NCBI GenBank assembly: GCA_946540005.1
Contig: CAMNHY010000002.1
Location: forward strand, 2,780 to 66,779
Length of the DNA: 64,000 bases
Source: an uncultured Clostridium sp.
GTDB lineage: Bacteria > Bacillota_I > Bacilli_A > Acholeplasmatales > Anaeroplasmataceae
Reading direction: 5' to 3'
A program made the translations under genes and the position numbers. Position 1 is the stretch's first letter; every line of letters begins with the position of its first letter. Under the pieces are notes generated by a model, which saw only the letters and a program-made list of their open reading frames with translations, did not search any database and was not told the origin of the DNA. Positions 35,479 through 62,026 of this stretch are shown here, piece after piece.

Positions 35479-35575
35479 AAATCTACACCCCACTTTTATA
35501 AAAATCAAATTAAATTTGATTATAAAACTCAATGTCTGTGCTGATTAAAGCCCATTGTCCTATTCTACTATTCAT

Positions 35576-40514: not shown

Positions 40515-41291
40515 TTAAAAATCTTTTAATTCTTCACTATCATTAAATAATGCCCATGAATACTGAATCATATATTCTCCTCTATACATTCTGATAGCAT
40601 CAGGATTTCCTTTTTTGTATTCGTATGCATCACAGTCTATTTTAGTAGGGTCTATGAAGCATTCATTATGTCTTTTAATGAAGACATCTTCACATCCTAC
40701 TTCTTTTAATGTATCTTGCAAATCAGCTATTAAATTTCTTAAATAAGATTTATGATCTTCTTCCCATAATATGGCATTAAGTTCATTTATATTAGATGAA
40801 GATCCTTCTCTATCAACAAGATAGGCAAATAATTCTTTTGATTTTTGTCTATGAAATTTTAAAGGAATTCCATCTTTGAAAACTTCAAAATTTCCAAAAC
40901 ATTTGACTTGTAATGGTTTTGTCTTCTTTAGTTCAATATTATATCTTAATCCTTCAATTTCATTTTTAACTTTAACTTCTGTAACTGGTTTCATTACATA
41001 TCCTGATGCATGTAATTTATATGCATCAAGTGCGTAATTATCATATGCAGTAACAAAGATAATATTAACTTGTGGATTTATAGCCTTTAATTTTTTTGCA
41101 AGAATAATGCCATTAATTTCGGGCATTTCTACATCTAGAAATGCAATATCTATTTTCTCATTAATCCTCTCATTATAAGCCTTTTTAGGATTAGTATAAC
41201 AATAATATGTTGCATCCGGCATTATTTTTCTACAAGTTTTTTCTAAACGAATTAATTGTAATTCCTCATCATCAACTAATAAGATTTTCAT
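40515..41291 (-). CDS. Two-component response regulator: receiver domain plus SARP/BTAD-type winged-helix DNA-binding domain
   Basis: I prefer the ATG at 41291 (MKILLVDDEE), with GAGGTG 4 nt upstream; the track start is 41303. Receiver motifs: LLVDDE, FLDVEMP, FVTAY, K in VMKP. The C-terminal part reads VKCFGNFEVFKDGIPLKFHRQKSKELFAYLVDREG...LWEED, typical of SARP-like wHTH domains. Confidence 0.8.
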   Translation of the reverse strand: MKILLVDDEELQLIRLEKTCRKIMPDATYYCYTNPKKAYNERINEKIDIAFLDVEMPEINGIILAKKLKAINPQVNIIFVTAYDNYALDAYKLHASGYVMKPVTEVKVKNEIEGLRYNIELKKTKPLQVKCFGNFEVFKDGIPLKFHRQKSKELFAYLVDREGSSSNINELNAILWEEDHKSYLRNLIADLQDTLKEVGCEDVFIKRHNECFIDPTKIDCDAYEYKKGNPDAIRMYRGEYMIQYSWALFNDSEELKDF

Positions 41292-41299
41292 AAGACACC

Positions 41300-42562
41300 T
41301 CACTTCTTTAATGTAACTGTTATTTTAGTACCAACATTCTTTTTACTAATAATATTTAAATCTCCTTCACACGTATGACTAATACGATAACTTATATTTT
41401 TTAATCCAAAATGTACATTTTCATCAAAATCAATTTCATTTAAATCAAATCCAATACCATCATCTTTTACCTCAATGACATAGCTTGAATCAGTTTCATA
41501 AGTGGTTAATGTAACTGTTCCACCTTCAATTTTTTTCAAAATTCCATGTTTAATAGCATTTTCAACTAGCGGTTGAATTGTTAGAGGTGGAATTGAAAAA
41601 TCTTTTGTGCCTATATCATAAATAATATGTATTCTATCCTTAAATCTCATCTTTTCTAATGAAACATATGTTTCTATATGTTTCAATTCATTTTCAAATG
41701 GAATAAGTCTTGTCTCTGTTAAAGATGATAAGTTTTTTCTTAAATATTCTGTAAAATCATCTAATGACTTTTGAGCCTTATCTGGATCAATACTAATAAG
41801 TGTTGAAATAGCAGATAGTGAATTATATATAAAATGTGGTTGAATTTGAGAAATCATAAGCTTTACATGAGCTTCTTTATTCTTTTCTTCTTGTTTGGAT
41901 AATTCTATGTTTTTTTCAACATTTGCAAAGAAGAATAAAATTTCAACTGTTATAATAATAGATACATAACCTATCGCATATCCACTATATATATTTTGGA
42001 AAATAATAGCTAATACAGGTAGCAAGCAATAAATTATAAATGCTGCCTTTTCTCTTTTTTTAAGTTTTTGAGTAATTGTTGTAACAAGTATTATTACTGA
42101 AAACATTATGAATTCATATCCTTGTGATATGAACATTGTTTTACTTCTTATATATTCCCCATTTTGAGAATAAAAATATATCGATGTTGGAATATTTATA
42201 ATATCTGTTATTACAAATATCGCAAACAAGATATTATTTAATAATGATAATCTTTTATTTAATTGATTAGATAAATTAATATAGCTAACCATATATTTGA
42301 ACAAAATATAGACTTCTATATTGTTCATAATATAAAAGGATGTATAGAAAGCTATTATTAAATCATCACTAGTATAAAAATTTTTAATTATGTTAAAAAT
42401 TAAATAAATTGAAAAATGGATTACATTAAATATCATAAATACTAAAAGCCATTTTTCGTCAGCTCTTTTATTTTTCTTAATTATTAAATTAACAATGTGA
42501 ATTAAAAATATCATTATTCCTATTCCACATATTGTTATTTTTATTCCCGCATTCGCATTCAT
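41300..42562 (-). CDS. Sensor histidine kinase, LytS/YehU (His_kinase PF06580 + HATPase) type, with a multi-TM sensor
   Basis: 420 aa with about 6 N-terminal TM helices. H-box QIQPHFIYNSLSAISTLI, N-box PLVENAIKHG, and G-boxes DDGIGF / GLKN. Confidence 0.85.
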   Translation of the reverse strand: MNANAGIKITICGIGIMIFLIHIVNLIIKKNKRADEKWLLVFMIFNVIHFSIYLIFNIIKNFYTSDDLIIAFYTSFYIMNNIEVYILFKYMVSYINLSNQLNKRLSLLNNILFAIFVITDIINIPTSIYFYSQNGEYIRSKTMFISQGYEFIMFSVIILVTTITQKLKKREKAAFIIYCLLPVLAIIFQNIYSGYAIGYVSIIITVEILFFFANVEKNIELSKQEEKNKEAHVKLMISQIQPHFIYNSLSAISTLISIDPDKAQKSLDDFTEYLRKNLSSLTETRLIPFENELKHIETYVSLEKMRFKDRIHIIYDIGTKDFSIPPLTIQPLVENAIKHGILKKIEGGTVTLTTYETDSSYVIEVKDDGIGFDLNEIDFDENVHFGLKNISYRISHTCEGDLNIISKKNVGTKITVTLKK

Positions 42563-42791: not shown

Positions 42792-44555
42792 TTATTCTTC
42801 TTTAAAATCAGCTATTTTTTTAGCTAATAAATCAATCTTATAATAATCAAAATAATCTACATCAATATCTACTTCAAATGCACCCTCATCACCTACATAA
42901 GTTTGTCCTTGTGGTTTAACAACATGCATGTATGAAGAATTAGCAATTATTTGTCCATTTGGTAATACCATACTTCTTAGTACACATTCTCCACCACCAG
43001 CTTTATTACCCATTATTTTTGCAACATTTTGTGCTTGGCAAAAGAAAGGATATGCAGTACCACATGAGAACGCAACAGGGCTTGTTAAAAGATAAAAATT
43101 GAATTTATTTCCATATGAATCTTTTTCATCATATTTTCCATCATTATTTGTATCTACACGTAAAGTATCTTTATATATACTATTTGCTAGATTATCATAG
43201 AAATATTCATATCCATAATTATCTTTAGATAGCAAGGCTATTAACTTACCCATAATTTCGGCATCTCCACCACTATTAATAGACATGTCAATAATTACGT
43301 TTTCTACCCCACCTTTTTTATCTATTTCAGCAAGATTACATTTGATTTTAAAATATGTATCTACTAATGCTAAATCTTCATCTTTTTGTCTTTTCTTATC
43401 TTTAGTTAAATAATCAGATGTATCATCAAATTCATCTAATGTAATCATTGCGGTTTTACCATCAGTTGAATATCTTACACCATTCTTTTCTAATGATAAT
43501 GATTTATATGCACTATTTCTTTCTTTTTTTAATGAATTACCTAAGATTACTCTATCTGCAGACATACTTTGAGGAATTTCCATATCAGAAACTTCTCCCC
43601 AAGGCAAGCTTTCTTTAATTAATACTGTATGATCATCATCAAGACCACTAATTAAACAGCTTAATCCATTAGCTCTATCTTTAGCACTACTACTATTTAA
43701 TAGTTTTGAATAACTAAAAGCTTCAAAATATGTAGACATCTTATCTCCAATTCCCTTTTGAGCTCTTAATCCATAAAAATTATCAAACATGAAATAAAAA
43801 TAATTTTTATTATAATCTATTAAATATTGTGGCATAGTTTCACTAGTATAATTTTTCATTTCTTGATAAGCTGTAGTCTCTTCTAATTTTTCATTTTCAT
43901 ATTTTTGAAGGCTTAAAGCTTTATAATCTGAAAATGATAGAATAGATTTATAATTATAAAAATTTCTATTAGTATGAAGTGGTTGTATAACAGAGTCAAG
44001 CATTGCAAATGGAAAATATGTTTTATCTTTTTCTCTAAAGACTTTAAATCCATATCCTGAATAATTAATATTATATTTCTTTTCTCCGCTTATTAATTCT
44101 ACTTTGTGACTCAATTCTAAACCTGATGATGTTAGATCAGTTGAATCATTAAATGATCTTATTACATCTTCCATTCTTCCATTTACTATAATACTTGATT
44201 TAGCTAAATCAAATTTATAATAAACTTTTGTTTCTTTATTAGAATAAACTAAATCAATATAATCATTTTTATCTGAAAAAGAAGCTTGATTATAAAGTTC
44301 TTCTCCAAGTAAAGCTGAATAACTTACAATATCAATATATGGAATATAATCTTCTCCTTCTATGAATTTAAGTTTTAATTTAGTGTTATCTTTATATGTA
44401 CTATATTTAATTACGTTTTGACTATCTGCACTATAATCTCTTAGAGATATTACACTAACATCTTTTTCAAAAGTTTTAAATCCAGTATTACCTGAACATG
44501 AAATAAGTGCAAAAAGTATTAGTAGTGGCAAAAATATTTTGAATAATTTTTTCAT
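42792..44555 (-). CDS. Lipoprotein, S41 (tail-specific/C-terminal processing) peptidase-like
   Basis: Lipobox LISCSG. The segment VIIDMSINSGGD resembles the S41 LDLRxNxGG block. FSCG and NKAGGG sit where the S41 Ser/Lys dyad blocks would be. The family call is tentative. Confidence 0.45.
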   Translation of the reverse strand: MKKLFKIFLPLLILFALISCSGNTGFKTFEKDVSVISLRDYSADSQNVIKYSTYKDNTKLKLKFIEGEDYIPYIDIVSYSALLGEELYNQASFSDKNDYIDLVYSNKETKVYYKFDLAKSSIIVNGRMEDVIRSFNDSTDLTSSGLELSHKVELISGEKKYNINYSGYGFKVFREKDKTYFPFAMLDSVIQPLHTNRNFYNYKSILSFSDYKALSLQKYENEKLEETTAYQEMKNYTSETMPQYLIDYNKNYFYFMFDNFYGLRAQKGIGDKMSTYFEAFSYSKLLNSSSAKDRANGLSCLISGLDDDHTVLIKESLPWGEVSDMEIPQSMSADRVILGNSLKKERNSAYKSLSLEKNGVRYSTDGKTAMITLDEFDDTSDYLTKDKKRQKDEDLALVDTYFKIKCNLAEIDKKGGVENVIIDMSINSGGDAEIMGKLIALLSKDNYGYEYFYDNLANSIYKDTLRVDTNNDGKYDEKDSYGNKFNFYLLTSPVAFSCGTAYPFFCQAQNVAKIMGNKAGGGECVLRSMVLPNGQIIANSSYMHVVKPQGQTYVGDEGAFEVDIDVDYFDYYKIDLLAKKIADFKEE

Positions 44556-44634: not shown

Positions 44635-44661
44635 AAAAAGGCCGTATAAAGCTATACGGTC
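44635..44661 (-). terminator. Rho-independent terminator after the 44696..46453 gene
   Basis: Minus strand reads GACCGTATA-GCTT-TATACGGCC followed by TTTTT. Confidence 0.7.
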
Positions 44662-44695: not shown

Positions 44696-46453
44696 TCATT
44701 TACCTTTTTTAGCATCATTTACACTTGAATAAGGTTCCCAATTGTGCGCATTTGTATTTGTTTTAAGACTAAATTTTAATTCAAATGCTGCAAATTTATA
44801 TTCATTGAAGTCAATAGAATTATTAAATTTTGTATCGAATGAACCTTTTACAACTAATTCAATATCTTCAATTAGATTATCTGAAACCTTTACTATTAAT
44901 TTACATTTATTAATTTCTAATGAATCTTCATTAAAATCTCCAAACAATTTGATTTGTTGGTTTGTTTTATTTAATGGATCTATATTCACACTTTCATTTA
45001 TATAATTCAATATATTTTTTATTGAACTATTATCTAATGTTATTGAATATGTTGAATTGTTTCCTGATATATCTTGTACAAATTTATAATGATTAACACT
45101 AGTAAATACTCCTAGCATATAATATAAATCATTATCATTTACTTTATAATTATTAATTTTAATAGCATTATCTTTTAAAACTTTCTTTTCAATAATATAC
45201 GCATCATTATTAGATAAAATAGTTTGGAATATATGTATATCATCTAAATCAGCATATTTATATAAATCACCATTTTTAAAATCCGAATCAATTTCAACAT
45301 CATTAATGAAGTAAGAATTAGTGTCTCCTACTTTTCTTCTAGTTGACCCTTTAACTGTTGCGTCTATTGAATTTGATCCATCAAAATTAACTCCTGTCTT
45401 CATTTTAAAATCATAACCTGAATGTTCTAAGTCTTTATATTGACGTATATAACTATCTAATTTGTTTTTAACAGTAGTTAAATCTTTAGAATCAATATAT
45501 ACACCTTCAACTTTTGGAGTATTAATAACAGTATTCTTATCTATATTTTTGATATTCATTTCATAATTTAAATTAAAATTAATACCTTTTACATTTATAG
45601 AAATATTATATTTATATTTGCTTATATACCCATTTGCAAATGAAACAATACTTGTAGCATTAATATCATTTAAAGGAACTTTTTTTAATGCAGCTTTTAC
45701 AAAAGGATTAGATAGATAATCACCAATTTTACTAGCGATTGTTGAAAAATTTAAAGTTGTTAAAATTTCATATTCACCAACATTTTCAGCTTTCTTTAGA
45801 TTAGTAATATCTTTATCATTAAAAGTAAATATAGCTTTATTAAAAACATTAAATTCAGTCTTTCTTTTTTCATTAACTTGATTAATTGAATAATCATTTA
45901 TTGAGCCATCACTATCAAATTCAACTTTTGTATAAATAGCATCAGATTGAAATGATGTTTGGGAACCATCAAAAAATAATAATCCTGAATTTTGATGAGT
46001 ATCTAAAAATGAAGTTTTTAAATCTTTATTATATTTAGTGTTTCCTATAGTTGTTCCTTCTAACTTTAAAGCTAAATATTTAACATTAGCTAAAATGTTA
46101 TAATCAAATTCAAATGAAGAAACAGTATCACCTACTGTTCTTTTTCTAGCTTCTAAAAATGCTTCTTTAGGTTCTAAAAACTTAGGATATAATACCAAAT
46201 TACTATCTACTGTTAGTGGAAAAGAAACATTTTCATTAAAGGATTTATCCTTATACCATCCCATAAAACAATAATTTTCTTTTTCAGGATCTTTAGGAGC
46301 TATTAATTCCTTGCCTTTTTCTACTTCTACACTAGAAATATTAGTCCCATAAAATTCAACCTTATATTTTGAATTTACGACTGTTGTTTCTCCACATGAA
46401 ATAGTTGAAAATACAACAAATATTAAAATGATTAAACTAAAAAATTTTTTCAT
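44696..46453 (-). CDS. Surface lipoprotein with an N-terminal Listeria-Bacteroides (InlB B-type) repeat
   Basis: Lipobox TISCGE. The segment YKVEFYG...YCFMGWYKDKSFNENVSFPLTVDSNLVLYPKF matches the GWY...LYA/PKW/F repeat signature. Confidence 0.75.
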   Translation of the reverse strand: MKKFFSLIILIFVVFSTISCGETTVVNSKYKVEFYGTNISSVEVEKGKELIAPKDPEKENYCFMGWYKDKSFNENVSFPLTVDSNLVLYPKFLEPKEAFLEARKRTVGDTVSSFEFDYNILANVKYLALKLEGTTIGNTKYNKDLKTSFLDTHQNSGLLFFDGSQTSFQSDAIYTKVEFDSDGSINDYSINQVNEKRKTEFNVFNKAIFTFNDKDITNLKKAENVGEYEILTTLNFSTIASKIGDYLSNPFVKAALKKVPLNDINATSIVSFANGYISKYKYNISINVKGINFNLNYEMNIKNIDKNTVINTPKVEGVYIDSKDLTTVKNKLDSYIRQYKDLEHSGYDFKMKTGVNFDGSNSIDATVKGSTRRKVGDTNSYFINDVEIDSDFKNGDLYKYADLDDIHIFQTILSNNDAYIIEKKVLKDNAIKINNYKVNDNDLYYMLGVFTSVNHYKFVQDISGNNSTYSITLDNSSIKNILNYINESVNIDPLNKTNQQIKLFGDFNEDSLEINKCKLIVKVSDNLIEDIELVVKGSFDTKFNNSIDFNEYKFAAFELKFSLKTNTNAHNWEPYSSVNDAKKGK

Positions 46454-46482
46454 AATATACTCCTTCTATAATATTATTTAAA

Positions 46483-46857
46483 TTAATCGTTTGTTTCACA
46501 AAGCATTAAGCATCCTGCTATAACAGAAACAAAAAATATACAACAAATCTTATAGCCAAAAGAAACTCGCTCGTTGCATCTAGTTTTTCTAAAATAATAT
46601 GATGTCATAGGAATTACCCATATTATTGGAATAATTAAACACACCCATGCTATACAAGAAAGTACCAAAAAGAATTTAATACCTGCCCTTAAATCATTAT
46701 TAGTTCTATTAGAATTAGCTACTTTATTATTATCTTTATTCTCATTAGAATTAAGATAATTATATCCATGAACAGATGTACCAACTTTAGTCCCACAATA
46801 AGGGCAAATCTGTGCAGAACTAAATAAAGAGTTCCCACATTTTTTACAATATTTCAT
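46483..46857 (-). CDS. Zinc-ribbon membrane protein
   Basis: I prefer the ATG at 46857 (MKYCKKCGNSLFSSAQICPYCG), with GGAGGAG 6 nt upstream. The track start at 46908 would translate the G10 tract. The protein has CxxC...CxxC plus 2-3 TM helices. Confidence 0.75.
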   Translation of the reverse strand: MKYCKKCGNSLFSSAQICPYCGTKVGTSVHGYNYLNSNENKDNNKVANSNRTNNDLRAGIKFFLVLSCIAWVCLIIPIIWVIPMTSYYFRKTRCNERVSFGYKICCIFFVSVIAGCLMLCETND

Positions 46858-46887
46858 TATTACTCCTCCATATTTATTGTTATCTTT

Positions 46888-46916
46888 AATATAACCCCCC
46901 CCCCGCATTTTGTCAA
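46888..46916 (-). promoter_or_regulatory. Sigma-70-type promoter TTGACA-17 nt-TATATT with a G10 tract inside the spacer
   Basis: Minus strand reads TTGACA AAATGCGGGGGGGGGGT TATATT. The -35 is at 46911..46916 and the -10 at 46888..46893. The element lies about 30 nt upstream of the RBS of the zinc-ribbon gene. Confidence 0.7.
46895..46904 (-). repeat. Homopolymeric G10 (C10 on the plus strand) tract
   Basis: Read directly: ataaCCCCCCCCCCgcat. It is the only long G/C homopolymer I saw in this AT-rich window. Confidence 0.95.
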
Positions 46917-47089
46917 GAATTTTGAAAAAATCATTTATATGTCATTTCAATTCATTTGTTTTAATTCTATCCTAAAGAAAAAAAGTCTATCTAGTATTAC
47001 CTAGATAGACTCATAGAATGAATTAATTTTTATTATCTTTTGAGTTATATGTTAATAAAGCTTGAACCTTCCATTCTTCTTTATAATTA

Positions 47090-47707
47090 TTATACCAACT
47101 CATTCATTAAACCTCCCTCATAAATGTTTTTATAAACAACATTAGGATATAAAGAAATATATTTTTTTACTATATCAAAATTGATACCAACTTTTTTTAC
47201 ATATTCTCTTAGTTTTCTTTTATATTCATCTCCACTTAGTTCAGAGTATTTATCAATTATACACATCAAATCTAAAAACTCTAATTCTCTTACATTATCA
47301 TTTGTTATTAATGCTAAAGGTTTATAAATAACAAGCTTATTCCCTCCAACATCTAGTTTACGCATTTTTGTTGTTGCATCATTAGAACATATTCCATATA
47401 CACTAGGATTTTGTGAAGTGAATCCATATTTATTTACTAAAGCTATCCCTGTATAAAAACCAATTATCCTGCCATCAACAAAAAGGTATTTCTTTTCAAT
47501 ATATCTATCAATTGATACTTTTCCTTCAGTTCCTAGTATTGTTTTATATGGCAAATAATATACACCATTATATAATCTTACTAGTTTTTTTTCATCGGTT
47601 AATCTTTTCATTTCATGTCTAACCACATCATTAGTTGATCCAGGAACTTCGCTTAAAAATATGGGCTCTCCTTTTTTATAATTATTAATGATGTATTCAT
47701 AAATCAT
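47090..47707 (-). CDS. AbiEi-antitoxin-like / DUF6088-like wHTH protein (orphan)
   Basis: 205 aa. The N-terminal pattern F...EV......VRHEMKRLTDEKKLVRLYNGVYYLP resembles the AbiEi/DUF6088 N-terminal wHTH (xL.rL...G.l.rl.rGvY). No cognate nucleotidyltransferase toxin gene is adjacent. Confidence 0.35.
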   Translation of the reverse strand: MIYEYIINNYKKGEPIFLSEVPGSTNDVVRHEMKRLTDEKKLVRLYNGVYYLPYKTILGTEGKVSIDRYIEKKYLFVDGRIIGFYTGIALVNKYGFTSQNPSVYGICSNDATTKMRKLDVGGNKLVIYKPLALITNDNVRELEFLDLMCIIDKYSELSGDEYKRKLREYVKKVGINFDIVKKYISLYPNVVYKNIYEGGLMNELV

Positions 47708-48049
47708 AATCTCACCTCACAAATTAGAAATATAATATTTCAATTTTGTTATAATATATTTTTGATTATTATTCAAGATGAAACGGAGTATAAAAAACTT
47801 GCCTGTAACATATTTTACAAACAAGTTTTCCTGTTTAAATTTTATTATATTTAACAAGGCAACATATTGTTTCCACTTGGGAAAATGATTTAGGAATTTT
47901 TTCTATACAATAAGTCAAGTTTTTATCTATCATATATAATTCATTTAACATAAGCAATAAAGCAAGTGCTTTTCTACTAAAAAATAGTACCACTTGCGGT
48001 TATTACTTTATTAATAAAAACTAAACTTAGAATTAAAATTTATATAATT

Positions 48050-48511
48050 TTAAAATAATTCCGGTTTAGAAAACCATTTCAAAAAATCAATTTCTATATT
48101 ATAAATATGGTTATCAATTATATCCTTCACTTCTTTAGAACTATTGTTATAGTAAATATATATAATTATAGGCCCAACAAAATCATACCCATTCTTATCT
48201 CCATAACAACTATCAAATTCTACTATTTCATTTGCTGATGTAATATATTTAAATTCATCATCATTACATAGATAAATATCATTATATGAAAATGCAAAAT
48301 AAAATATTCCATTATATTCATTTGGGCATTCTAAACTCCACACAAATCTAGATGAATCTTCATCAATATATAGAGAATGTGTAATTCTATTACCATTTAC
48401 ATCCAATGAACGAGTTGCATTAATTTGGCATGCAGTCTCACGTTCTAAGTTGTTATCACAACTACATAAAGTCAATAATAAAATGACAAATACTAACATT
48501 TTTCTTTTCAT
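48050..48511 (-). CDS. Small lipoprotein, function unknown
   Basis: 153 aa with a signal peptide and the lipobox LTLCSCD. Confidence 0.6.
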   Translation of the reverse strand: MKRKMLVFVILLLTLCSCDNNLERETACQINATRSLDVNGNRITHSLYIDEDSSRFVWSLECPNEYNGIFYFAFSYNDIYLCNDDEFKYITSANEIVEFDSCYGDKNGYDFVGPIIIYIYYNNSSKEVKDIIDNHIYNIEIDFLKWFSKPELF

Positions 48512-48588
48512 ACTAGCTCCACTCCTAGTAATTAAATATATTATAATCTAATAAGACAATTCCACCAAATCCAGTCCATGCACTTAAA

Positions 48589-49063
48589 TCAAAATACCTG
48601 ATAGTCTAATTGATTTATCCAATCTACCATCTTCATTGGATGTTCTTCTATTGCTTGTAATTCTGCATAATCTAAGTACATAGATACTAATCTATTTAAT
48701 ATTAGTACCTATATTACTTTTAACTCTATATCCAACAGCAATTATCATATCTAAATTATAATAAGCTACGTTATATATTTTCCCATCTAGGGCAGTAGTT
48801 CGATAAAATCGAACAACTGAATTTTTATCTAATTCCTCTTCCTTTAATATATTATTTATATGGAAACTCATTGTTGATTTTGAAATATTAAATAACTCAC
48901 ACAACTGTTTTTGACTTAGCCAAACTGTATTATTTTCAATTTTTACTTCAATTTTATCTTTTCCATCCTCAGTTTTATATATTACAATATTGCCCATTTT
49001 CTCATCCATAATATCACCAATTCTTTCTAACAATATTATGTCATGTTTATTATTCATAAACAA
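48589..49063 (-). pseudogene. rhuM: rhuM-family (virulence RhuM-like) pseudogene with a large internal deletion and a frameshift
   Basis: The N-terminal part (GNIVIYKTEDGKDKIEVKIENNTVWLSQKQLCELFNISKSTMSFHINNILKEEELDKNSVVRFYRTTALDGKIYNVAYYNLDMIIAVGYRVKS) matches the RhuM N-terminus and stops at 48692. Immediately after, in another frame (48589..48690), LVSMYLDYAELQAIEEHPMKMVDWINQLDYQVF matches the RhuM C-terminal region. The roughly 150 intervening residues are missing. Confidence 0.75.
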
Positions 49064-49553
49064 CGTTTAGTTTACTCTTTGTAAACATCGAGAACAAATA
49101 AAATTCCTATGATTAATTTACCATAGGATTTGCTATTATTTACAGTATATTAAATTCTACGTAGTATTTTAAATAAGTAAAATTGAATAGTTTATAGCGT
49201 TTGTAAATGTCAATAATAATTTCATCAATGATTTTTTGTTGAAAGTCTAGCTTAGATTCATAGTTGTAAATAAACAACAAATTATTAGTTCACTAACGAT
49301 TTAATAGATACTATTAATTATAAAAATCTTTATTTTAATTTTACCCTAATTTACTTCTTTAATCTAGTTATAAACCCTATGTCGTTTTATGCATAAGTAT
49401 TGTATGTTAATGTTCTTATATAGAATGTATTACCTACTTATATTTTATTAGCATATTCAATTTACTAAATGAAAACTAATAATGTATCTTATAACTCAAT
49501 TTATGATGAAGATTATATGCCTATTTAACTTTAGCAGTGACTAGTTCATAAGG

Positions 49554-49605
49554 CAACAAAAAAAGGCTTAAATACCAAAACTTCAGTATTTAAGTCGCTT
49601 TTTTA
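49554..49605. terminator. Bidirectional-looking hairpin terminator (A-run, 9-bp stem, T-run) in a gene-poor stretch
   Basis: AAAAAAAGG-CTTAAATAC-caaaacttca-GTATTTAAG-TCGCTTTTTT (stem 49567-49575 / 49586-49594). Confidence 0.45.
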
Positions 49606-49986
49606 ACATTTTATTTAGCATCATTGCAAATTAGAGGTGTGATCGACTCACCAATGTGCTCAAAGATTAGTGACTTTGGAAAATAATCAACCCAAAAATC
49701 CAGTTATTTATCATCTTTTTTGGAAGCGTTCCTTATACCATTTTATAAATTCAAGAGTCGCATCAGTTCTACAATCAGGTCTACTCATTCTTTCTTCATC
49801 AGTCATTTCAGCCATAGTCCTTGTACAATTTAATGGAATAAATACATATCATAAATTTGATTTAGCCTTATTATTTTCATGGCACTTAAACTCAGTTGAT
49901 ATTCTTCCTTTCTTTATCCCATTAAATCGAAAAAATCCTTTTCTAAGAATGCTCTTTTCTCAATTAAGCAAGTTCTAAATTAAAAT

Positions 49987-52900
49987 TTATTTATTAGAAT
50001 TTAAAATACCTTTTAATGTTATTTTTAATTGAGTATAATCTCTTGCGCATTCTCTAGGAATAAACAAAAGCTTAATATTGTGTTTTTCGCACATTTTCTT
50101 CTTATAATTATCTCTTTCAATTACATCTTGTCTACTTCTATGTTCAGGGCCATTTAACTCAATAATGGCTACAATCTTGTTATAATTAAATGCTCTTTCA
50201 TATATAACAAAATCGAAGCTTTGAGTATAATATAATCTATTTATAGTCGTATCATTTTTAAAGACATTTTTCATCTCAACTTCTTGTCTAACATAGCATT
50301 GTGTACTAATAACTGAGAATAGTTGGTCAATAGTCTCTTTAAAATCATTTTCTGATTTTGAAGATATTTCTCTAGTCCCAAGTGCTTCAGATTTAGGAGA
50401 TACATTTGTTACATTACACTGTCCATTAGTCTTAACATAATCAAATAATTCTCTCATATCATCTACACCTTTAGATAATTTTTTAACGGCATTGAGTGAA
50501 CCTAGCACCACTAACTTATCTTTTGATCTAGAGATAGCAACATTTATTAATTCTCTATTATTTTTTAACCATTCATATGTTTTTTCATAAGTGTTTTTTG
50601 TAATGGCTGTAGAAAATAAAATGACATTCTTTTGATCACCTTGGAATGCATGTACCGTACCAACATTTACATTTTGAATACCATTAATTTTTAAATAATG
50701 CTCGATGCAATCTTTTTGATGTACAAATGGAGTTATTACTCCAATATCTTCATTTGGATGTCCTTTTACATATTCAACTATCTTTTGAGCTTCTATGTTA
50801 GATACATTCTTTTGTGGCTCATTATTCTTTTCATCATCAATACTTGTATCTAATAATACTAATGGATTAGCTTCTCTAGATTTACTTCTAAGTTTTAATC
50901 TATTGTTGTAATATTTTTTATTGCAAAACGCAATAATTTTATCATTACAACGGTAGTGATAAGATAATAATGTTTCTTTATTAATAACGTCTATTGTTGC
51001 AAATGTAGTATAAATTGAATTATTAATATAATTATATTCATCAGCTACTCTAAATTTATCCATTAATTTTTTATTAATAGTAGGGTCTAATACCACTACA
51101 GGTCTTAATTGTTGTGGATCTCCAACAAGTACAATTCTTTCGCCACGTAAAATTGAAATTAATGCATTTGCAATATTACATTGTCCTGCCTCATCCATTA
51201 AGACATAATCAAATTGAGTCTTAGGACTTCCTAAATAAGTTGCGCTCATATTTGTTGTAATGATTATTGGGAATATTTCTTGGAAAGCTTTCAAATTAGA
51301 ATCATCAATTAAATAATCTTTAAAAGCTTTAATCCTTCTATTTTTATCATCCTCAGATTCAACTGGCATTTGTAATATATCTCTAAGAGTTGAATATTTA
51401 TTTCTATTAATCTTCTTTAATCTTTGAACAGTATCAAAATGAATAGACATAAATAATCTTCTAAAATCTATATTCATTAATTCCTTAAGCTTATCATCAT
51501 CTACTTCTATATGACCTAATTCATTTAATTCTTTTCTAACTTCTGCAATTTGAGCATCAAGTCTTATCTTCATCCATTCATCTTTAGTCTTTTCAATTAA
51601 TGCGTTTATAGCTTCAATTTTAGATAATAGTTCTTGTTGATGTTCATACTTTTCAAGAAGTTCTGTTAATCCTCTCATGGCAGCTTTACGCTCATTTTTT
51701 ATGTTTTGAATTGCATTCTCGTCAGCTTTTAAACCTGATGCACGCTCAATCATCTCATTAATATAATCTAGCGCTTCATTAATAGATTCAAAATTTCCAA
51801 TTCTAATTGCAGGAAATAATAATGGTACATTTTCTTTATACTTTAAAGATTTAATATCTTCGAATACTCCATCCATTGGAATATTATTGTTAGAAGTAAC
51901 TAAAGCGGTCTTATCGTTATAATAAATAGTTAAAATAAGATTTAATAATGTTTGAGTTTTTCCTGTACCAGGTGGACCTTGTACATATGATGCCGCAGAT
52001 TTCATTGCGCCATCGATTGCGTTTATTTGATCTATATTATATTTATCATCTACTACATATATTGGATAATTAATTTTTCTAACATTCTTAGGATTAGGAT
52101 TCCCAAAGAATGTATCTATAGGTATAGACATAGTTTCGGGATTAGAAATCATCTCTCTAATACCATTAAACTGTTCTCTTATATCGATAATAATATTTTT
52201 TGCTAAATAAACAATATATGGCTTAGAATCTAATATATTCTTATATGGCTTATTAGCATTATTGTTGTATTCTTGAATGATATTATGAATTTTTTGTTCA
52301 TTAGCGTCAAAATTTTCTAAAATGTTTAATGCATCTTCTGGAATAAATTTTGATATAGAATATATATTCTTGCTTTCAGTTTTACTAGAATCAAATGAAA
52401 ATTCCCTATTAATTATTGTATCCTTTGATGGAATTAAACATCTATTTTTAATATCTAATTTTAATTCTCTATATGCAAGTACATAAAGTCCTTTATCTGT
52501 TTCAATTGATAATCTATTCAAAGCTAAAATGGTTTCTATTTTATTATTTTTCTTTTTATCTTTCTTATTCATTAAAGCTAAGGATAATTCTTTAAATTGA
52601 TCTTCAGATAATTGATATTTATCATTTTCTAAAATTGTATCATTATCTATACCCTTAACTAAACCATATTGGCTTTTATATGGAACATTATCTAATTTGA
52701 AGCATTCTTCATAATAATCTAATATATCATCTCTATCCATATTGTATTGCAAGAATGCATAACTTTCAGGATATTTTGCTAAATTATCTAATAATTTTTT
52801 AGGTGTTACATGATATGTACCTTCAATTGCTTCAGCTGACAATATACCAGAATAATATATTTGTCTTCCTTCAGTCGATTCATTATACATAATATTAAAT

Positions 52901-53106
52901 GAATCAATATCAAATAATTCTAATCTATAATTGATATCATTTATACCAACCATAAAAGAAGTGATTTGATCACTCTTATTTTTATATTTAATTTTTAACC
53001 ATAAATTTTGATTTATAGCTTTACTAATCTCTCTAGAAATTGAATTATAATTAATATTTTCACTATCAATTTCTTCATTTGAATCTTTCTCTTTGACTTC
53101 TATCAT
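49987..53106 (-). CDS. SF1 (Upf1/DNA2-like) helicase fused to a C-terminal Vsr/DUF559/DUF2726-type endonuclease fold; Hhe-like defense candidate
   Basis: 1039 aa. Helicase motifs: I VQGPPGTGKTQT, II LMDEAGQC, III LVGDPQQLRPV, IV SYHYRC, V VHAFQGDQKNVILFS, VI INVAISRSKDKLVVLG. The C-terminus reads FDFVIY...VAIIELNGPEHRSRQDVIERDNYKKKMCEKHNIKLLFIP, an (D)-ExxG-H-D-K REase-like pattern. The first ~350 aa are unassigned. Confidence 0.8.
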   Translation of the reverse strand: MIEVKEKDSNEEIDSENINYNSISREISKAINQNLWLKIKYKNKSDQITSFMVGINDINYRLELFDIDSFNIMYNESTEGRQIYYSGILSAEAIEGTYHVTPKKLLDNLAKYPESYAFLQYNMDRDDILDYYEECFKLDNVPYKSQYGLVKGIDNDTILENDKYQLSEDQFKELSLALMNKKDKKKNNKIETILALNRLSIETDKGLYVLAYRELKLDIKNRCLIPSKDTIINREFSFDSSKTESKNIYSISKFIPEDALNILENFDANEQKIHNIIQEYNNNANKPYKNILDSKPYIVYLAKNIIIDIREQFNGIREMISNPETMSIPIDTFFGNPNPKNVRKINYPIYVVDDKYNIDQINAIDGAMKSAASYVQGPPGTGKTQTLLNLILTIYYNDKTALVTSNNNIPMDGVFEDIKSLKYKENVPLLFPAIRIGNFESINEALDYINEMIERASGLKADENAIQNIKNERKAAMRGLTELLEKYEHQQELLSKIEAINALIEKTKDEWMKIRLDAQIAEVRKELNELGHIEVDDDKLKELMNIDFRRLFMSIHFDTVQRLKKINRNKYSTLRDILQMPVESEDDKNRRIKAFKDYLIDDSNLKAFQEIFPIIITTNMSATYLGSPKTQFDYVLMDEAGQCNIANALISILRGERIVLVGDPQQLRPVVVLDPTINKKLMDKFRVADEYNYINNSIYTTFATIDVINKETLLSYHYRCNDKIIAFCNKKYYNNRLKLRSKSREANPLVLLDTSIDDEKNNEPQKNVSNIEAQKIVEYVKGHPNEDIGVITPFVHQKDCIEHYLKINGIQNVNVGTVHAFQGDQKNVILFSTAITKNTYEKTYEWLKNNRELINVAISRSKDKLVVLGSLNAVKKLSKGVDDMRELFDYVKTNGQCNVTNVSPKSEALGTREISSKSENDFKETIDQLFSVISTQCYVRQEVEMKNVFKNDTTINRLYYTQSFDFVIYERAFNYNKIVAIIELNGPEHRSRQDVIERDNYKKKMCEKHNIKLLFIPRECARDYTQLKITLKGILNSNK

Positions 53107-53402: not shown

Positions 53403-54836
53403 TTATTTTAATAAGAATTTATTACTATAACCAACTTTACCATTAAATAGTCTAGTAATTTTATCTAAGTCTTTATTTTCAGCAAAATAATTTGGATGAT
53501 TTATTACGCAATTTTTAACCGGATTTGCTAATAAATCTGTAAAATCATCATTATTTAAATAAAGTTTAGTGCATTGCACAAGACACGAACCATATCCATA
53601 AGGCTTACCATGTCCTATCTTTTGAAAATGATTTGAATCATTTCCTAATTCTATTGAAAAGATAAGTTTATCTAATTCTTCTTTAGTTAGATTTTCAAAA
53701 TAAATCTTACCATTAAAAATTACATTACTTTCATCAGATATATATTCAAAATAACCTACAACATTATCATTATTTTTAGCAACTTTACCATTGTAAGATT
53801 TAAAATTTAAATAATACTTTCTTCCAGCTAAACCTGGATTATCATCAAACTGATTAATAATATAATTTTTACCATTTTCAGGATGAGGATTTAAAGTAAC
53901 TAATTCGGTATAATCTTTTTTAACTTTACTATTAATTGGGGCTAAGAAATCAGTAAATCTTACTCTTGAAGATAGTGATGATTCGTTTGAAATATATCCA
54001 AATAGACTACATGCTGGGCATAAAGCGTTATCTGCTGTACATTTCAAGGAATCTCCAATTAAATCATTTAGACTATATTTTAGTTCTTCACGTGAAATAG
54101 ATAAATATATTTTTTTATCTCTCTTTGTATAATATGCAGGAATCCAAAAATGATTTTTTTCTTTTAATAAATTATATAAGTGCAAATTTTGCTCATCTAA
54201 ATTAATTGATTTTTCAAAAAACTTTTGTAGTTCTTCCGGTTGTTGGCAATTAATTTTAATAAATTTCCCAACAAAATTAAAGTATTGTATACCATCACTT
54301 TTAGAAAAAACCATCTTATGATTATTATCCTGTGAATAATATATTTGTTTCTTGTGATTGTATGTAAGGTTGGTTTTATATTCAATATAATCCTCGTAGT
54401 GTTTATTTCTTCTTAAATCTATCAATTTATTATCACTTGTACAATCAATTTGAATAGAATTATATACACCTTTTAATTTTCCCTTTTCAAATTCAACCAA
54501 ACATTCATTTGCGTAGATATTATCAAGATGTAAATCATTATTTACTGAGGATAAACATGAATTTGTAATTGTTTCAAAAACATTTCTAACAATACCTTTT
54601 ACTTCAGAACCTGGAATTGCATACTGTGAACCAATTTTAAATAGTTCATATTTTCCATTTATATTATTTCCAGGTATTATAAGTCTTGATTTAGGAGTTA
54701 TTGATGCTTCAATATAACCTGATAATGTACCTTTTGTATATTGACTTCTAATTACTTTCTTTAAAGGAATAAAATCATATGGATTAGTATTCTCTTGAGG
54801 TCTTTTAAATATCCTATTATTGTTTGCATATCTCAT
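53403..54836 (-). CDS. Type III RAMP protein (Cas7-like with a large insertion and CxxC element; Csm5/Cmr6/Csx10-type not resolvable by eye)
   Basis: 477 aa. RAMP hallmarks: AIPGSEVKGIVRNVFE, CPACSLFG, and the G-rich loop IGHGKPYGYGSC. RBS AGGGAGG precedes the start. Confidence 0.7.
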   Translation of the reverse strand: MRYANNNRIFKRPQENTNPYDFIPLKKVIRSQYTKGTLSGYIEASITPKSRLIIPGNNINGKYELFKIGSQYAIPGSEVKGIVRNVFETITNSCLSSVNNDLHLDNIYANECLVEFEKGKLKGVYNSIQIDCTSDNKLIDLRRNKHYEDYIEYKTNLTYNHKKQIYYSQDNNHKMVFSKSDGIQYFNFVGKFIKINCQQPEELQKFFEKSINLDEQNLHLYNLLKEKNHFWIPAYYTKRDKKIYLSISREELKYSLNDLIGDSLKCTADNALCPACSLFGYISNESSLSSRVRFTDFLAPINSKVKKDYTELVTLNPHPENGKNYIINQFDDNPGLAGRKYYLNFKSYNGKVAKNNDNVVGYFEYISDESNVIFNGKIYFENLTKEELDKLIFSIELGNDSNHFQKIGHGKPYGYGSCLVQCTKLYLNNDDFTDLLANPVKNCVINHPNYFAENKDLDKITRLFNGKVGYSNKFLLK

Positions 54837-54840
54837 ACTA

Positions 54841-55146
54841 TTATTCCTCCCTTAGCAAAAAAGGTGCAGTAGAAGTTATATATAAAATACCATCCGAATT
54901 AAAATTATAATAATTCCTCATGATATATTTATTTATACCTGAATCATTCTTAAAGTTTGGATTAATCAAAATTGTTTCATCAAAGAATTTTTCATCTTTG
55001 ACTAAAGATATTAATCCATAACCTTTGACATAATGATAAGACTTTTCACTATCGAAGACATAAGCCTCAAGTACATCTGATTCAAATTCAGATATTTCTT
55101 TGTTAATAAATTCTATTTTATCTAAATAATATATTAAACTTACCAT
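54841..55146 (-). CDS. Small (101 aa) protein of unknown function embedded in the type III effector operon
   Basis: Strong RBS (AAAGGAGG, 6-nt spacer). It is separated by only 1-4 nt from both flanking RAMP genes. It is not obviously all-helical, so it does not look like a typical Cas11. Confidence 0.65.
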   Translation of the reverse strand: MVSLIYYLDKIEFINKEISEFESDVLEAYVFDSEKSYHYVKGYGLISLVKDEKFFDETILINPNFKNDSGINKYIMRNYYNFNSDGILYITSTAPFLLREE

Positions 55147-55147
55147 A

Positions 55148-56317
55148 TTATGCCTCCTTTAATGAACTAATTAATTCATTTATTTCAACACCAATAAGAG
55201 ATATATCCCCAATATTTTCAAATATTCCTCTTCCAATTGATGCTTCTCCACCTAGATTTACTAATCCAGCGCCAATATCTCTAAGTGCAAGATAATACAA
55301 TGCTGCAATAACTTTATTGCCGCCTCTAATTCTTACACTCAATGTTCCTATAGAGTTTTCCGTAGGTACAAATACTTTTTCAGTAATTAGTGCCCCATCT
55401 ATTACAGCCCCACTAAAATGATCAATCTTATTACGCGTAATTATCTCATTTTTTCCATCTAAATATAATTCATCAACAACCGTTTTCTTAATTTCATCTT
55501 TTAAAGAATCTAAGTCTATATTCTTTAGTTTTGGCGCATACACATCAATGATTCTATGCTGTAATACACCATTAATTGATGTTCCAGGAACTAAAGCCCT
55601 ATTATTATTTCCCATCAATTGAGAATAATCATAGTCTAGAATCTCGCTATATTCTCTAACGATTAGTGGACTAATAAGCTTTACTTTTAAACTTAATAAA
55701 ATATCACCATCAGTTATTAAATTACTATTAATTTGATTAATCAAATCATTTTGATTTAATTCTTCTCCACAGAAATTCATATAGTCATGATAATCTTTAA
55801 TTTCCTTGAAGTATAAATGTGTAATCTTTTGTATACCATAACCACGATTTTGCTTATAACCTAATCTAAATAAACCAGATTGGATATTATTAGCTACATC
55901 AATAATAGCTTCTTGAACATCTATAAGATTATTATTTACATCATATTCAATAAAGAATGACCACTCTTGATTATCTAAAATGACCTCTGTGTCATATTTA
56001 GCTCCCTTTACAGTTCTTTTATTACTATCTAATTGAATACCATCTCTTGTAGATTCTTTTACATCAGCTGTAAATATACCATCAGAAATAAATAATCTAG
56101 ATTCATCTTTAATCTCTTTAGCATCTGTAACAATACCGAATACATTTTTACTATATTTACTCTTAGAAAAGAATGAACCAGCAATTGAGGATGCAGGAAT
56201 AAAAGGAGTATTATCAGAATATCTAATAATATCATGATCAGTATTAGATGAATAAGCTGCTCCAATTGATAATGTTGACTTATTAGTAAGTACAAATCTA
56301 TATATTAGTTTATGCAT
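55148..56317 (-). CDS. Type III double-RAMP protein (Cas7-Cas7 fusion)
   Basis: I prefer the ATG at 56317 (MHKLIYRF), with AGGAAGGA about 8 nt upstream; the track start is 56326. There are two RAMP modules. The first has FIPASSIAGSFF with G-loop LGYKQNRGYG. The second has LVPGTSINGVLQHR with G-loop LGGEASIGRGIFE. Confidence 0.75.
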   Translation of the reverse strand: MHKLIYRFVLTNKSTLSIGAAYSSNTDHDIIRYSDNTPFIPASSIAGSFFSKSKYSKNVFGIVTDAKEIKDESRLFISDGIFTADVKESTRDGIQLDSNKRTVKGAKYDTEVILDNQEWSFFIEYDVNNNLIDVQEAIIDVANNIQSGLFRLGYKQNRGYGIQKITHLYFKEIKDYHDYMNFCGEELNQNDLINQINSNLITDGDILLSLKVKLISPLIVREYSEILDYDYSQLMGNNNRALVPGTSINGVLQHRIIDVYAPKLKNIDLDSLKDEIKKTVVDELYLDGKNEIITRNKIDHFSGAVIDGALITEKVFVPTENSIGTLSVRIRGGNKVIAALYYLALRDIGAGLVNLGGEASIGRGIFENIGDISLIGVEINELISSLKEA

Positions 56318-58247
56318 TATCTTCATCCTTCCTTTCTCTCTTGCTATACTTATATAATGTAAATAATTCTCTAACAGCTCTTATCTTTTCTAAATCAGTA
56401 AATTTAGAGATACTATTTTCAAAAGACTTTAATATTTCATTTATTTTTCCTTTTAATGATTCTTTCTTAATAAGTTCAATATTTGATTTAAATGAATTAG
56501 GGCCCTCATATTTAGTAATTAATTTATCGCTCGACAATGAAATTATCTTAGATATTTCAGTCATCCCTAGATCAATATTAGAATTTTGTATAAAGAAATT
56601 ATAGCTAGCTTCTAAAATTCTAACTTCTCTACTTTTTATATTATTTGGAGTAGAACTAACTTTAACTTCTTTATTTATCGCATCTTCTAGATTATTTAAA
56701 TCTACATTAAATATTGTAAACTCACCAAATCCTTTAAACAAATCACACGATATAGCATTAACTTTTGTTAAAGATTTAAACAAAATATATGATCCCGGTG
56801 TAACAACTGTTTCAATATTTCTTGGTAAATTCCTTAACATATTGTATCCACCAATATTTTTGAAATTAATTGAAAAAGAATTAACATCATTATTACTAAT
56901 TTGTTTTATTATATCTTGCTGATTTAGTATTGGAAATCCTTCATTTTTAAATAAAGACTCTGATTTAAAAATAACAAGATTACCCATATTATTCTTCTTA
57001 GTTTCAACATATTTTGCACTAATAATACATTTACCATATTGATTATATTTAGATTTACCTAAATATATTTCTTTAGAATTACACTTTGAAAATAATTCAT
57101 CTAAATCTTCTTGTTTACCTGTAATTCTGCATACAAAATGTTGTCCTTTAGTTAATGAGTAGAATTGATAAAATTTACCTAAATCAGTTCTATTTCCGAT
57201 TGTTTTATATAAATGATAATTATATTCAAATTCAGGTTCTATAATTTCAATATTCTTAAAGTCGCCTTTATGTCTTGTTACATATTCTAAAGTCTCTTCT
57301 TTTATATATTTTCCATCAAGGCTTTCTGTTTTACGATTGTTTTGATTTTCAGTTTTAACTAAATTATTAACATATATTGTACTACCGTCTTTATCCTTAT
57401 TTTTGACCCTGCGGATATAAGAAGGTACAGGAAGATATGTATTATAATCTTCGTCAGAAATGTATGCATTACTAAATCTTAATCCTTCATTGTTATTTAA
57501 GAATAGTCTGTCAAAAACTTTTTGATTAAAATTTTTTGTTTTTGCATAAGCATTTGCAAAATATCCATAAATTGTAGAACCCGGAATATAATCTAAACTT
57601 CTATCTTTAATCGCACCATTGATCATAAGATTATCCAAATTTGTGATATGAAGTTCAACTGTAGAAGTTTTCTTTCCAAGAGGTAAAAGCATATGAATCT
57701 TATTATCAATCTCTTGAAGAGTCATTTTAACATAGCCTAATCCTCTGTTTCTATGTACACCTAGATGGTGTACTAATGAAATTGCTTCAATTAGAAATTG
57801 TAAATATTTCTCATCAAATTCAAGAATTGATTCAAATTCAGTACCTTTGTTTACTACGTTAATTGTGCGCAAGGATCCATCTTTAACTTCTCCTGTCGTT
57901 TGGTCAATTGATGTAAATGTTCTTAAAGATACATACTTATCCTTAATAATATTAGAAGGTTCACTTGTATCTTTATGTTTAATAACCGCATCCTTAATGA
58001 TAAGATTTGCAGAGGTTGAAGAATTAGCAATTCCACAAGCTAATTCTTTTCCAAATAAATTATTAAAGTATTCTTGATTATTTATTTCTCTAGCACTGTC
58101 TTTAATTAAGCCTTTAATACGTCTAGCTGGAATATATGGATAACCTAATGAATCTGTGCATACATCTAAATCAACAGCAAGTCCTTTACCAATACCGCTT
58201 GCTATAGCTGCATCACTTTTTAATTCTATAATTAATTTAGCTCTCAT
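56310..58247 (-). CDS. Type III multi-domain RAMP fusion (Cas7-like N-terminal RAMP, second Csx10/Cas5-like RAMP, helical C-terminal tail that may be Cas11-like)
   Basis: About 645 aa. The ATG at 58247 (MRAKLIIEL) follows the cas10 stop by 1 nt; the track start is 58259. RAMP 1 has YIPARRIKGLIKDSAREI, NLFGKE and LGVHRNRGLGYV. RAMP 2 has DYIPGSTIYGYFANAY and LGKSKYNQYGKC. The last ~110 aa look helical and K/E-rich. Confidence 0.7.
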   Translation of the reverse strand: MRAKLIIELKSDAAIASGIGKGLAVDLDVCTDSLGYPYIPARRIKGLIKDSAREINNQEYFNNLFGKELACGIANSSTSANLIIKDAVIKHKDTSEPSNIIKDKYVSLRTFTSIDQTTGEVKDGSLRTINVVNKGTEFESILEFDEKYLQFLIEAISLVHHLGVHRNRGLGYVKMTLQEIDNKIHMLLPLGKKTSTVELHITNLDNLMINGAIKDRSLDYIPGSTIYGYFANAYAKTKNFNQKVFDRLFLNNNEGLRFSNAYISDEDYNTYLPVPSYIRRVKNKDKDGSTIYVNNLVKTENQNNRKTESLDGKYIKEETLEYVTRHKGDFKNIEIIEPEFEYNYHLYKTIGNRTDLGKFYQFYSLTKGQHFVCRITGKQEDLDELFSKCNSKEIYLGKSKYNQYGKCIISAKYVETKKNNMGNLVIFKSESLFKNEGFPILNQQDIIKQISNNDVNSFSINFKNIGGYNMLRNLPRNIETVVTPGSYILFKSLTKVNAISCDLFKGFGEFTIFNVDLNNLEDAINKEVKVSSTPNNIKSREVRILEASYNFFIQNSNIDLGMTEISKIISLSSDKLITKYEGPNSFKSNIELIKKESLKGKINEILKSFENSISKFTDLEKIRAVRELFTLYKYSKRERKDEDNA

Positions 58248-58248
58248 A

Positions 58249-59826: not shown

Positions 59827-59840
59827 TATACTACCTCTTT

Positions 59841-60506: not shown

Positions 60507-60570
60507 ATATTCTCTCTAATTCTTTCATTTTTTATTATTATAGCATTTTTTAATAAAATGTTTAATAACT

Positions 60571-60675
60571 TCACATTTTATTTTTATGGTTTGTTCTATA
60601 TTCAATATATGTATCAACACATTCAAATATAAGATCAACAGCTATATTAACAATATTTTTTAATTTTTTAAACAT
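60571..60675 (-). CDS. Possible small ORF (34 aa) between cas2 and cas6
   Basis: Not in the ORF track. GAGGTG lies 5 nt upstream of the ATG. The ORF reads MFKKLKNIVNIAVDLIFECVDTYIEYRTNHKNKM* and sits downstream of the duplicated promoter-like element at 60706..60747. There is no homology evidence. Confidence 0.3.
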   Translation of the reverse strand: MFKKLKNIVNIAVDLIFECVDTYIEYRTNHKNKM

Positions 60676-60705
60676 AAAATCACCTCACGAATACAAACTA
60701 ATTTT

Positions 60706-60747: not shown

Positions 60748-60760
60748 AAAAGAAACTATT

Positions 60761-61015: not shown

Positions 61016-61019
61016 ATCT

Positions 61020-61964: not shown

Positions 61965-62026
61965 ATAACCTCCATATAATCCATTCTTACTAAGAAATAT
62001 TTTAGTTATTGCTACATCTATAATAT

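Follow-up and report, generated by a model that had tools for sequence, protein, structure and literature searches.

The window (the whole 64-kb stretch of DNA analyzed here) belongs to scaffold_456 (76 kb) of a sheep-rumen assembly in ENA. It has a GC content of 27%, and every large open reading frame (ORF) in it lies on the minus strand, which is the coding strand. On this strand, a -35 hexamer that matches the consensus at 6 of 6 positions (TTGACA, 46911-46916) is followed by a 17-nt spacer, AAATGCGGGGGGGGGGT (46894-46910), and a -10 hexamer that matches at 5 of 6 positions and contains the critical A2 and T6 (TATATT, 46888-46893). The spacer reads AAATGC-GGGGGGGGGG-T and includes a homopolymer of 10 G's (G10; 46895-46904, C10 on the plus strand), which the sequence and the strain comparison below identify as a length-variable element. 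The arrangement proposed in an earlier note on this DNA, with TTGACA and TATATT separated by 17 nt of which 10 are G, is thus found exactly at 46916-46888. The same note called the tract very unusual for AT-rich sequence, and we observed no other G/C homopolymer of 6 or more nucleotides in the 64 kb; one other run has a length of 5. Directly 5′ of the -35 hexamer lies an AT-rich block, ACATATAAATGATTTTTTCAAAATTC (46917-46943, minus strand), which comparison showed to be kept with the operon in all strains and which is possibly an UP element.

A consensus scanner gave the candidate promoter a score of 11/12, the top value within 44-48 kb, and our own scan of the whole 64 kb found only five sites scoring at least 11/12, all on the minus strand. 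By chance, one long G/C run would land in the spacer of any of these five top sites with a probability of approximately 5 × 17/64,000, or ∼1e-3, indicating that the placement of G10 is not what chance would give.

The candidate promoter is carried in an intergenic region of 230 nt, with a terminator on its 5′ side and a gene led by a ribosome-binding site (RBS) on its 3′ side. The terminator-like hairpin (46983-47012, minus strand), recognized from a perfect 11-nt inverted repeat, has a 12-bp stem and a T run; it probably ends the upstream DUF6088 gene and would shield the promoter from read-through. Apart from this hairpin, only weak, AT-rich imperfect inverted repeats (71 to 92% complementary) were found in 46300-47400. 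An invertible promoter (inverton) was considered and rejected, there being no convincing inverted-repeat pair around the promoter and no adjacent recombinase gene. On the 3′ side, the predicted leader is ∼24 nt long, and a Shine-Dalgarno sequence, GGAGG (46865-46869, minus strand), stands 7 nt before an ATG at 46857; the tract is 38 nt 5′ of this start codon.

The first of the two genes downstream (46483-46857, minus strand) encodes a protein of 124 aa. At its N terminus is a CxxC...CxxC zinc ribbon, near threshold in Pfam (Zn_ribbon_3, 26.2 bits versus a cut-off of 27), and it has two hydrophobic segments (residues 58-89 and 100-122). The protein is practically an orphan: a search of 5.8 billion proteins yielded just one variant, 98% identical. 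The second gene (44696-46453, minus strand) begins 29 nt after the first, with its own GAAGGAG, and encodes a 585-aa predicted lipoprotein whose signal peptide ends in a lipobox-like ...STISC. This protein carries one Flg_new/InlB B-repeat domain (Pfam, 39.9 bits; PDB internalin B, E = 1e-7), to which its sequence matches are limited, and the remainder is a beta-rich body of ∼480 aa. No tandem repeats were detected in 44696-46453 using TRF. A terminator-like hairpin with a T run (44642-44659, minus strand) closes the two-gene unit. Based on the near-threshold zinc-ribbon matches, the hydrophobic segments, the lipobox-like motif, and the Flg_new/InlB domain, we agree with the earlier description of the unit as a zinc-ribbon membrane protein plus an InlB-B-repeat lipoprotein that ends at a terminator. 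A search of 44.0-49.5 kb for Rfam families returned none, apart from one sub-threshold chance match to a microRNA family.

The AF2 model of the lipoprotein, a confident one (pLDDT 82.8), yielded no meaningful global match in the PDB (TM about 0.1). Locally, the modeled fold appears to resemble Staphylococcus aureus Csa1B/DUF576 lipoproteins and LolA3 (probability 0.98-0.99), with TM values of 0.30-0.36 on the target. With the global matches meaningless and the similarity local only, assignment of a function to the lipoprotein from structure was rejected.

Just 5′ of the tract is a variable, defense-like stretch (47090-53106) that encodes the DUF6088 protein (47090-47707), a 153-aa lipoprotein, a truncated RhuM-family ORF, and a 1,039-aa SF1 helicase-DUF2726 fusion. 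It is followed by a type III CRISPR-Cas system (53403-63224) that encodes Cas1, Cas6, a Cas10 palm domain, and three RAMP proteins and whose CRISPR arrays, with the repeat GTCTCTATTCCTTAAAGGTACTTTAGTTAC, are at ∼62152-63224. These defense-rich neighbors are compatible with phage pressure on a surface receptor and are no evidence for it. On the other side, the next gene after the two-gene unit encodes an S41-peptidase lipoprotein (42792-44555) and has its own extended -10, TGTATAAT; a LytS-type histidine kinase and a response regulator (40515-42562) also lie 3′ of the unit. A conjugative-element-like block, all on the minus strand (7036-38793), includes a VirB4/TraG P-loop ATPase (17733-20399), a type IV coupling protein (30609-33062), an MBG-domain protein (33067-35532), a 2,545-aa ORF (22985-30622), and several ORFs of 850 to 1,040 aa without a Pfam match.

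We recovered the operon in other assemblies via exact-protein look-ups and one metagenome scan, and we aligned 11 sequences of close strains (2.4 kb, 1 to 2% SNP divergence). The promoter boxes, leader, and RBS are identical in all strain assemblies, and the tract length differs. Ten G's, giving a 17-nt spacer, occur in the window scaffold (L001/L004) and in L002, L003, L012 (identical to L038), L039, and L013. Nine G's (16-nt spacer) occur in L040 and L041, and seven (14-nt spacer) in L005 and L006; the contig of L042 starts inside the run and retains at least 8 G's. From 45 nt 5′ of the -35 hexamer through both genes, the tract is the sole indel in the alignment, which contains ∼60 SNP columns and at least 7 haplotypes. 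The earlier note had tied its proposed switch to length polymorphism among strains, and the alleles of 10, 9, and 7 G's provide it. A search for further tract alleles in IMG/VR viral contigs returned no match.

The distribution of alleles over haplotypes bears on how often the length changes. G10 is present on four distinct SNP haplotypes, from which we conclude either that the tract is not extremely unstable or that selection holds the spacer at 17 nt. The shorter alleles (L040, L041, L005, and L006) fall within one SNP clade, and their place on the haplotype tree requires at least two length changes, not many, so they might reflect a few inherited events instead of frequent switching. Coverage of contigs with G7 is low (2.2× for L006 and 3.0× for L074, a contig from another species described below). 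G10 was seen again in independent assemblies, including the Logan assembly of run SRR873595, and the tract is not an assembly artifact of the window scaffold.

The sequence upstream of the operon is of three kinds. The first contains the DUF6088 gene, as in the window. The second contains two other genes, with homology to the window stopping at 47070, and the third an insertion sequence element with rve genes, with homology stopping at 46943. The block from 27 nt 5′ of the -35 hexamer onward accompanies the operon in all three contexts.

We built a profile from homologs of the lipoprotein (34 to 67% identity) and scanned it against one genome per GTDB species. All 28 loci that it found come from rumen or gut MAGs labeled Bacilli, Erysipelotrichaceae, Clostridia, or Acholeplasmataceae. 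The species of the window is absent from the GTDB representatives scanned, among which the best match to the window lipoprotein has 38% identity. At about 20 of the 28 loci (L043-L070), the adjacent upstream gene encodes a ∼300-aa HTH_XRE-Zn-ribbon-TM protein, making a two-gene module in which a membrane-anchored protein with an XRE-type HTH, CxxC zinc ribbons, and a multi-pass C-terminal domain precedes an Flg_new lipoprotein. This module is common in rumen and gut Bacilli/Erysipelotrichaceae MAGs and is apparently uncharacterized; the family of the HTH-bearing partner has 282 matches at an E value of ≤1e-20. The possibility that the first gene of the window unit is a truncated XRE regulator is not supported, given that hhalign pairs the CxxC knuckle only (probability 12.8%) and tblastn finds nothing.

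In the ∼170 kb of these 28 loci there are only two G/C runs of at least 8, and both are located in promoter spacers. L043 (a Bacillota MAG, 28% GC) has TTGACA-GAAACTGT-G10-TATTAT with an 18-nt spacer, and L053 (an Erysipelotrichaceae MAG, 50% GC) has TTGAAA-TTCGATT-G9-C-TATCAT with a 17-nt spacer. Both tracts precede an operon of an HTH_XRE-Zn-ribbon-TM protein and a lipoprotein homolog, 140 to 160 nt 5′ of the start codon in noncoding DNA. In the window, L043, and L053 alike, it is the coding strand that carries the G's, and the run stops 0 to 1 nt ahead of the -10. A length difference was also found in the L053 lineage: L074 (96% DNA identity) has G7 and a 15-nt spacer, and the two sequences, 4% diverged, differ by five other indels. 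Other homopolymer candidates among the 28 loci were limited, for G/C runs of 7, to L044, which has a C7, and L052, whose G7 is apparently coding.

Close relatives of L043 lack the tract. L071, whose partner protein is 99% identical (amino acids) to that of L043, has TTGACA-ACAACTGGCTTTAAGCG-TATCAT, and L072 and L073 (84%) have TTGACA-ATGAACATCTGCAAGCG-TATTAT; these are ordinary 17-nt spacers, and the sequence in L071 differs from that in L072/L073. Boxes that are kept around a spacer of free sequence and a length of 17 nt are the footprint of a genuine promoter, and the tract-free spacers indicate that L043 acquired its tract recently and within its own lineage. TTGACA and TATnAT, separated by 16, 17, or 18 nt, are likewise present in L046, L048, and L052, at the same 125 to 140 nt from the start codon. 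The window, L043, and L053 promoters have nothing in common beyond the consensus boxes, and the L043 and L053 lipoproteins are 34 to 38% identical to that of the window, suggesting that the tracts were gained independently. There has thus been an apparent threefold convergent gain of a G tract upstream of the operons of one lipoprotein family.

Based on the 11/12 match of the boxes flanking G10, their placement between terminator and RBS, and the relatives that keep the boxes around a free 17-nt spacer, we infer that the site is a sigma-70/sigma-A-type promoter with a hypermutable G tract in its spacer. The placement of the tract in a promoter spacer, as the earlier note had it, is a well-supported candidate, backed also by the conserved block that travels with the operon.

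Sigma-70/sigma-A promoters need a spacer of 17 ± 1 nt, and G/C runs of approximately 8 or more slip at high frequency in replication. From these two properties, we predict that tract length would set expression of the unit. Slipped-strand mispairing in replication would gain or lose G's and so alter the distance between the -35 and -10 hexamers: the operon would be ON at G10 (17 nt, optimal), reduced at G9 (16 nt) and G11 (18 nt), and OFF at G8 or fewer (15 nt for G8 and 14 nt for G7). If the shifts are reversible and frequent enough, the population would always be a mixture of cells that display the lipoprotein and cells that do not, and such mixed display could act as bet-hedging against phage, host antibody, or protozoal grazing. 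A slippage-driven promoter switch, on-off or graded, for the two-gene surface-lipoprotein unit is, in our judgment, probably the best explanation for the locus. With one such tract in 64 kb, there is no sign of a wider gene set controlled by simple sequence repeats (SSRs) within the window.

The main competing explanation is that the promoter is real and its tract, a mutational hotspot, has become fixed through drift or selection at differing lengths in different strains, tuning or inactivating the operon without rapid reversible switching. We regard this as a distinctly less likely account, although it would fit the stability of G10 over four haplotypes and the confinement of the short alleles to one SNP clade. 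The divergence and additional indels of the L053/L074 pair also suit it, as does the fact that no mixed lengths of one haplotype were seen within a sample among the assembled contigs. Against fixation, 9 to 10 G's exceed the length of frequent slippage in every bacterium tested, as is well established, and one assembly (L042) breaks exactly within the tract. Moreover, three lineages apparently acquired the architecture independently, each with the tract at the same place in the spacer, which argues that mutability itself is selected. It is improbable that the tract is instead a structural or protein-binding promoter element, either rigid poly(dG)·poly(dC) or a regulator site, with incidental length differences. 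No candidate protein for binding the tract is known, relatives with ordinary spacers retain the same boxes, and the tract changes length between flanks that are invariant at every base, a pattern characteristic of slippage and not of a constrained binding site. Such an element would explain why, in each of the three species, the tract adjoins the -10 with the G's always on the coding strand, and the spacer region of the relatives does contain operator-like TGTTTA repeats for the co-encoded XRE protein; a role of this kind is compatible with slippage-driven switching, not exclusive of it.

The remaining two explanations have little in their favor. In a translational switch, synthesis would start at an ATG at 46908, between the -35 hexamer and the tract, which would then encode MRGGG... 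(peptide MRGGGYIKDNNK), and tract length would set the frame of a 141-aa protein. The ORF at 46483-46908 is indeed open through the tract at G10, and the frame is kept at G7 and broken at G9. However, the ATG at 46908 has no Shine-Dalgarno sequence, whereas the ATG at 46857 has GGAGG 7 nt before it. Gene callers take the 124-aa product in every assembly with a complete gene, including those with G9, and it is at residue 1 of this short form that the alignment to the zinc-ribbon Pfam models begins. The upstream terminator would also leave no transcript over the ATG at 46908. With the window tract outside the RBS-led reading frame and the L043 and L053 tracts in noncoding DNA 140 to 160 nt from the start codon, we rejected an intragenic switch as very unlikely. 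Still harder to credit is a sequencing or assembly artifact (a poly-G artifact or a homopolymer miscount). Homopolymers are error-prone, the G7 contigs have only 2 to 3× coverage, and one contig ends in the tract, but G10 is present in at least 6 assemblies from different samples, assemblers, and databases and on distinct SNP haplotypes. G7 likewise occurs in two SNP-distinct contigs and G9 in two contigs of different haplotypes, and the tract is internal to long contigs of up to 76 kb.

The predicted switch has close parallels among known contingency loci. At the porA and opc genes of Neisseria meningitidis, slippage alters the spacer length and causes graded or on-off transcription, with an optimum near 17 nt. 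The porA tract, a poly-G run in the promoter spacer, was reportedly described by van der Ende et al. in 1995. For opc, a poly-C tract in the promoter is documented (PMC3960869). The window site resembles these loci in having a G/C homopolymer between -35 and -10 hexamers, here those of a candidate surface-protein promoter. Unlike the meningococcal genes, which encode outer-membrane proteins of a Gram-negative human pathogen and whose switching was shown by experiment, it belongs to a lipoprotein operon of a rumen commensal that is uncultured and of the wall-less type. The two are unrelated in sequence. More generally, a run of at least ∼8 G/C (here G10) that differs in length among strains with conserved flanks gives the site two features of a contingency locus of the porA/opc/vlp type.

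In Mycoplasma hyorhinis, poly-A indels switch the vlp promoters on and off (Citti and Wise 1995, as reviewed in PMC10502178). The window shares with vlp a mollicute host, surface lipoproteins, and a homopolymer in the promoter region, a candidate one in the window. The vlp tract is poly-A in a multigene family, and internal repeats also cause size variation among the family members; the window tract is poly-G, far more conspicuous at 27% GC, and belongs to a single locus without internal tandem repeats. Unlike vlp, the window also has a partner gene for a membrane zinc-ribbon protein, predicted to be cotranscribed, and the standard genetic code; its long ORFs under table 11 are consistent with standard-code mollicutes. 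The PhnC protein of the window falls into a 90%-identity cluster with a protein labeled "Acholeplasmatales bacterium" at NCBI, and that order belongs to the class Mollicutes. Membership in the Vlp system was rejected based on the poly-G tract, the single locus, the lack of tandem repeats, and a lipoprotein of the Flg_new/InlB-B-repeat family of rumen and gut Bacilli.

The hif fimbrial promoters of Haemophilus influenzae have TA repeats between their boxes and use them much as Vmm of Mycoplasma mycoides does. In M. mycoides, TA repeats in the promoter spacer control transcription of Vmm (Persson 2002, as reviewed in PMC10502178), and here, as at the candidate promoter of the window, the repeat is within the spacer upstream of a mollicute surface-protein gene. 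The Vmm and hif repeats have a dinucleotide unit and would change the spacer in 2-nt steps, whereas the window tract is mononucleotide and would do so in 1-nt steps. Two papers on Campylobacter describe hypermutable G/C homopolymers, some of them intergenic, in an AT-rich genome (PMC8355987, PMC6321876). Campylobacter has dozens per genome, mostly intragenic; the window has one in 64 kb, precisely in a spacer.

The literature that we searched contained no report of SSR promoter switches in Acholeplasmatales or rumen Bacilli and no paper uniting phase variation, promoter spacer, and poly-G; for Acholeplasma, it yielded papers on Mycoplasma only. To our knowledge, nearly all documented cases of SSR phase variation come from pathogens in culture (Neisseria, Haemophilus, Campylobacter, Helicobacter, and Mycoplasma). 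The window provides a comparatively supported candidate in an uncultured, Acholeplasmatales-like commensal of the sheep rumen, a new kind of organism for a textbook device, and the device recurs upstream of operons for one lipoprotein family in genomes ranging from 27% to 50% GC. Given that the mechanism is already textbook, the finding extends its range and not the concept. What is added is comparative evidence from metagenomes only, together with the apparent threefold convergence in one operon family, and the comparison of tract lengths across samples indicates that metagenome assemblies suffice for finding and testing such switches. These observations suggest that stochastic surface variation is a normal part of rumen life. 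They also suggest that selection on the lipoprotein family fluctuates; candidate roles would include, for example, that of a phage receptor or of a factor in interactions with host or protozoa.

Upstream of the HTH_XRE-Zn-ribbon-TM genes, we observed operator-like repeats of two subfamilies, which are probably autoregulation sites. The AT-rich subfamily has the motif TTCAACA-N3-TGTTTAG, often overlapping the core promoter spacer, and occurs at L043 1890-2035 and in the upstream regions of L045, L059, L061, L064, L066-L068, L071, and L072. The GC-richer subfamily has TTCGCC...AAAGCGA palindromes within a leader of ∼150 nt (L046, L051-L053, L055, L056, and L074). The XRE-type HTH of the relatives' membrane protein, combined with operator-like repeats that overlap the promoter, raises the possibility that the tracts in L043 and L053 make the regulator itself phase variable, and a possible phase-variable, membrane-tethered regulator would be of interest beyond host range and convergence.

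More tentatively, and with considerable doubt, we suggest that the zinc-ribbon membrane protein and Flg_new lipoprotein module of rumen and gut Bacilli/Mollicutes has gained poly-G spacer switches at least three times independently. In L043 and L053, the switch would act on a membrane-tethered transcription factor and might flip its regulon stochastically; in the window lineage, stochastic SSR control of a partner without an HTH would have taken the place of deterministic autoregulation altogether. If true, repeated gain across the module would represent a path, taken more than once, by which uncultured commensals in a habitat that is not dominated by immunity pass from regulated to contingency expression. 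The driver might then be phage or protozoal predation, as the locus adjoins a defense island.

We also noted several minor features at these loci. The start of the window spacer, ACAAAATG, resembles the left half of the AT-rich operator-like motif, which may be a coincidence. A tRNA-like sequence, recognized by eye, lies on the opposite strand at L043 1757-1829, ∼80 nt 5′ of the G10 promoter. In L069, an A12 run (2867-2878) is located ∼130 nt 5′ of the lipoprotein homolog, beside a TACAAT and without a convincing -35 hexamer, and could be another homopolymer switch or chance.
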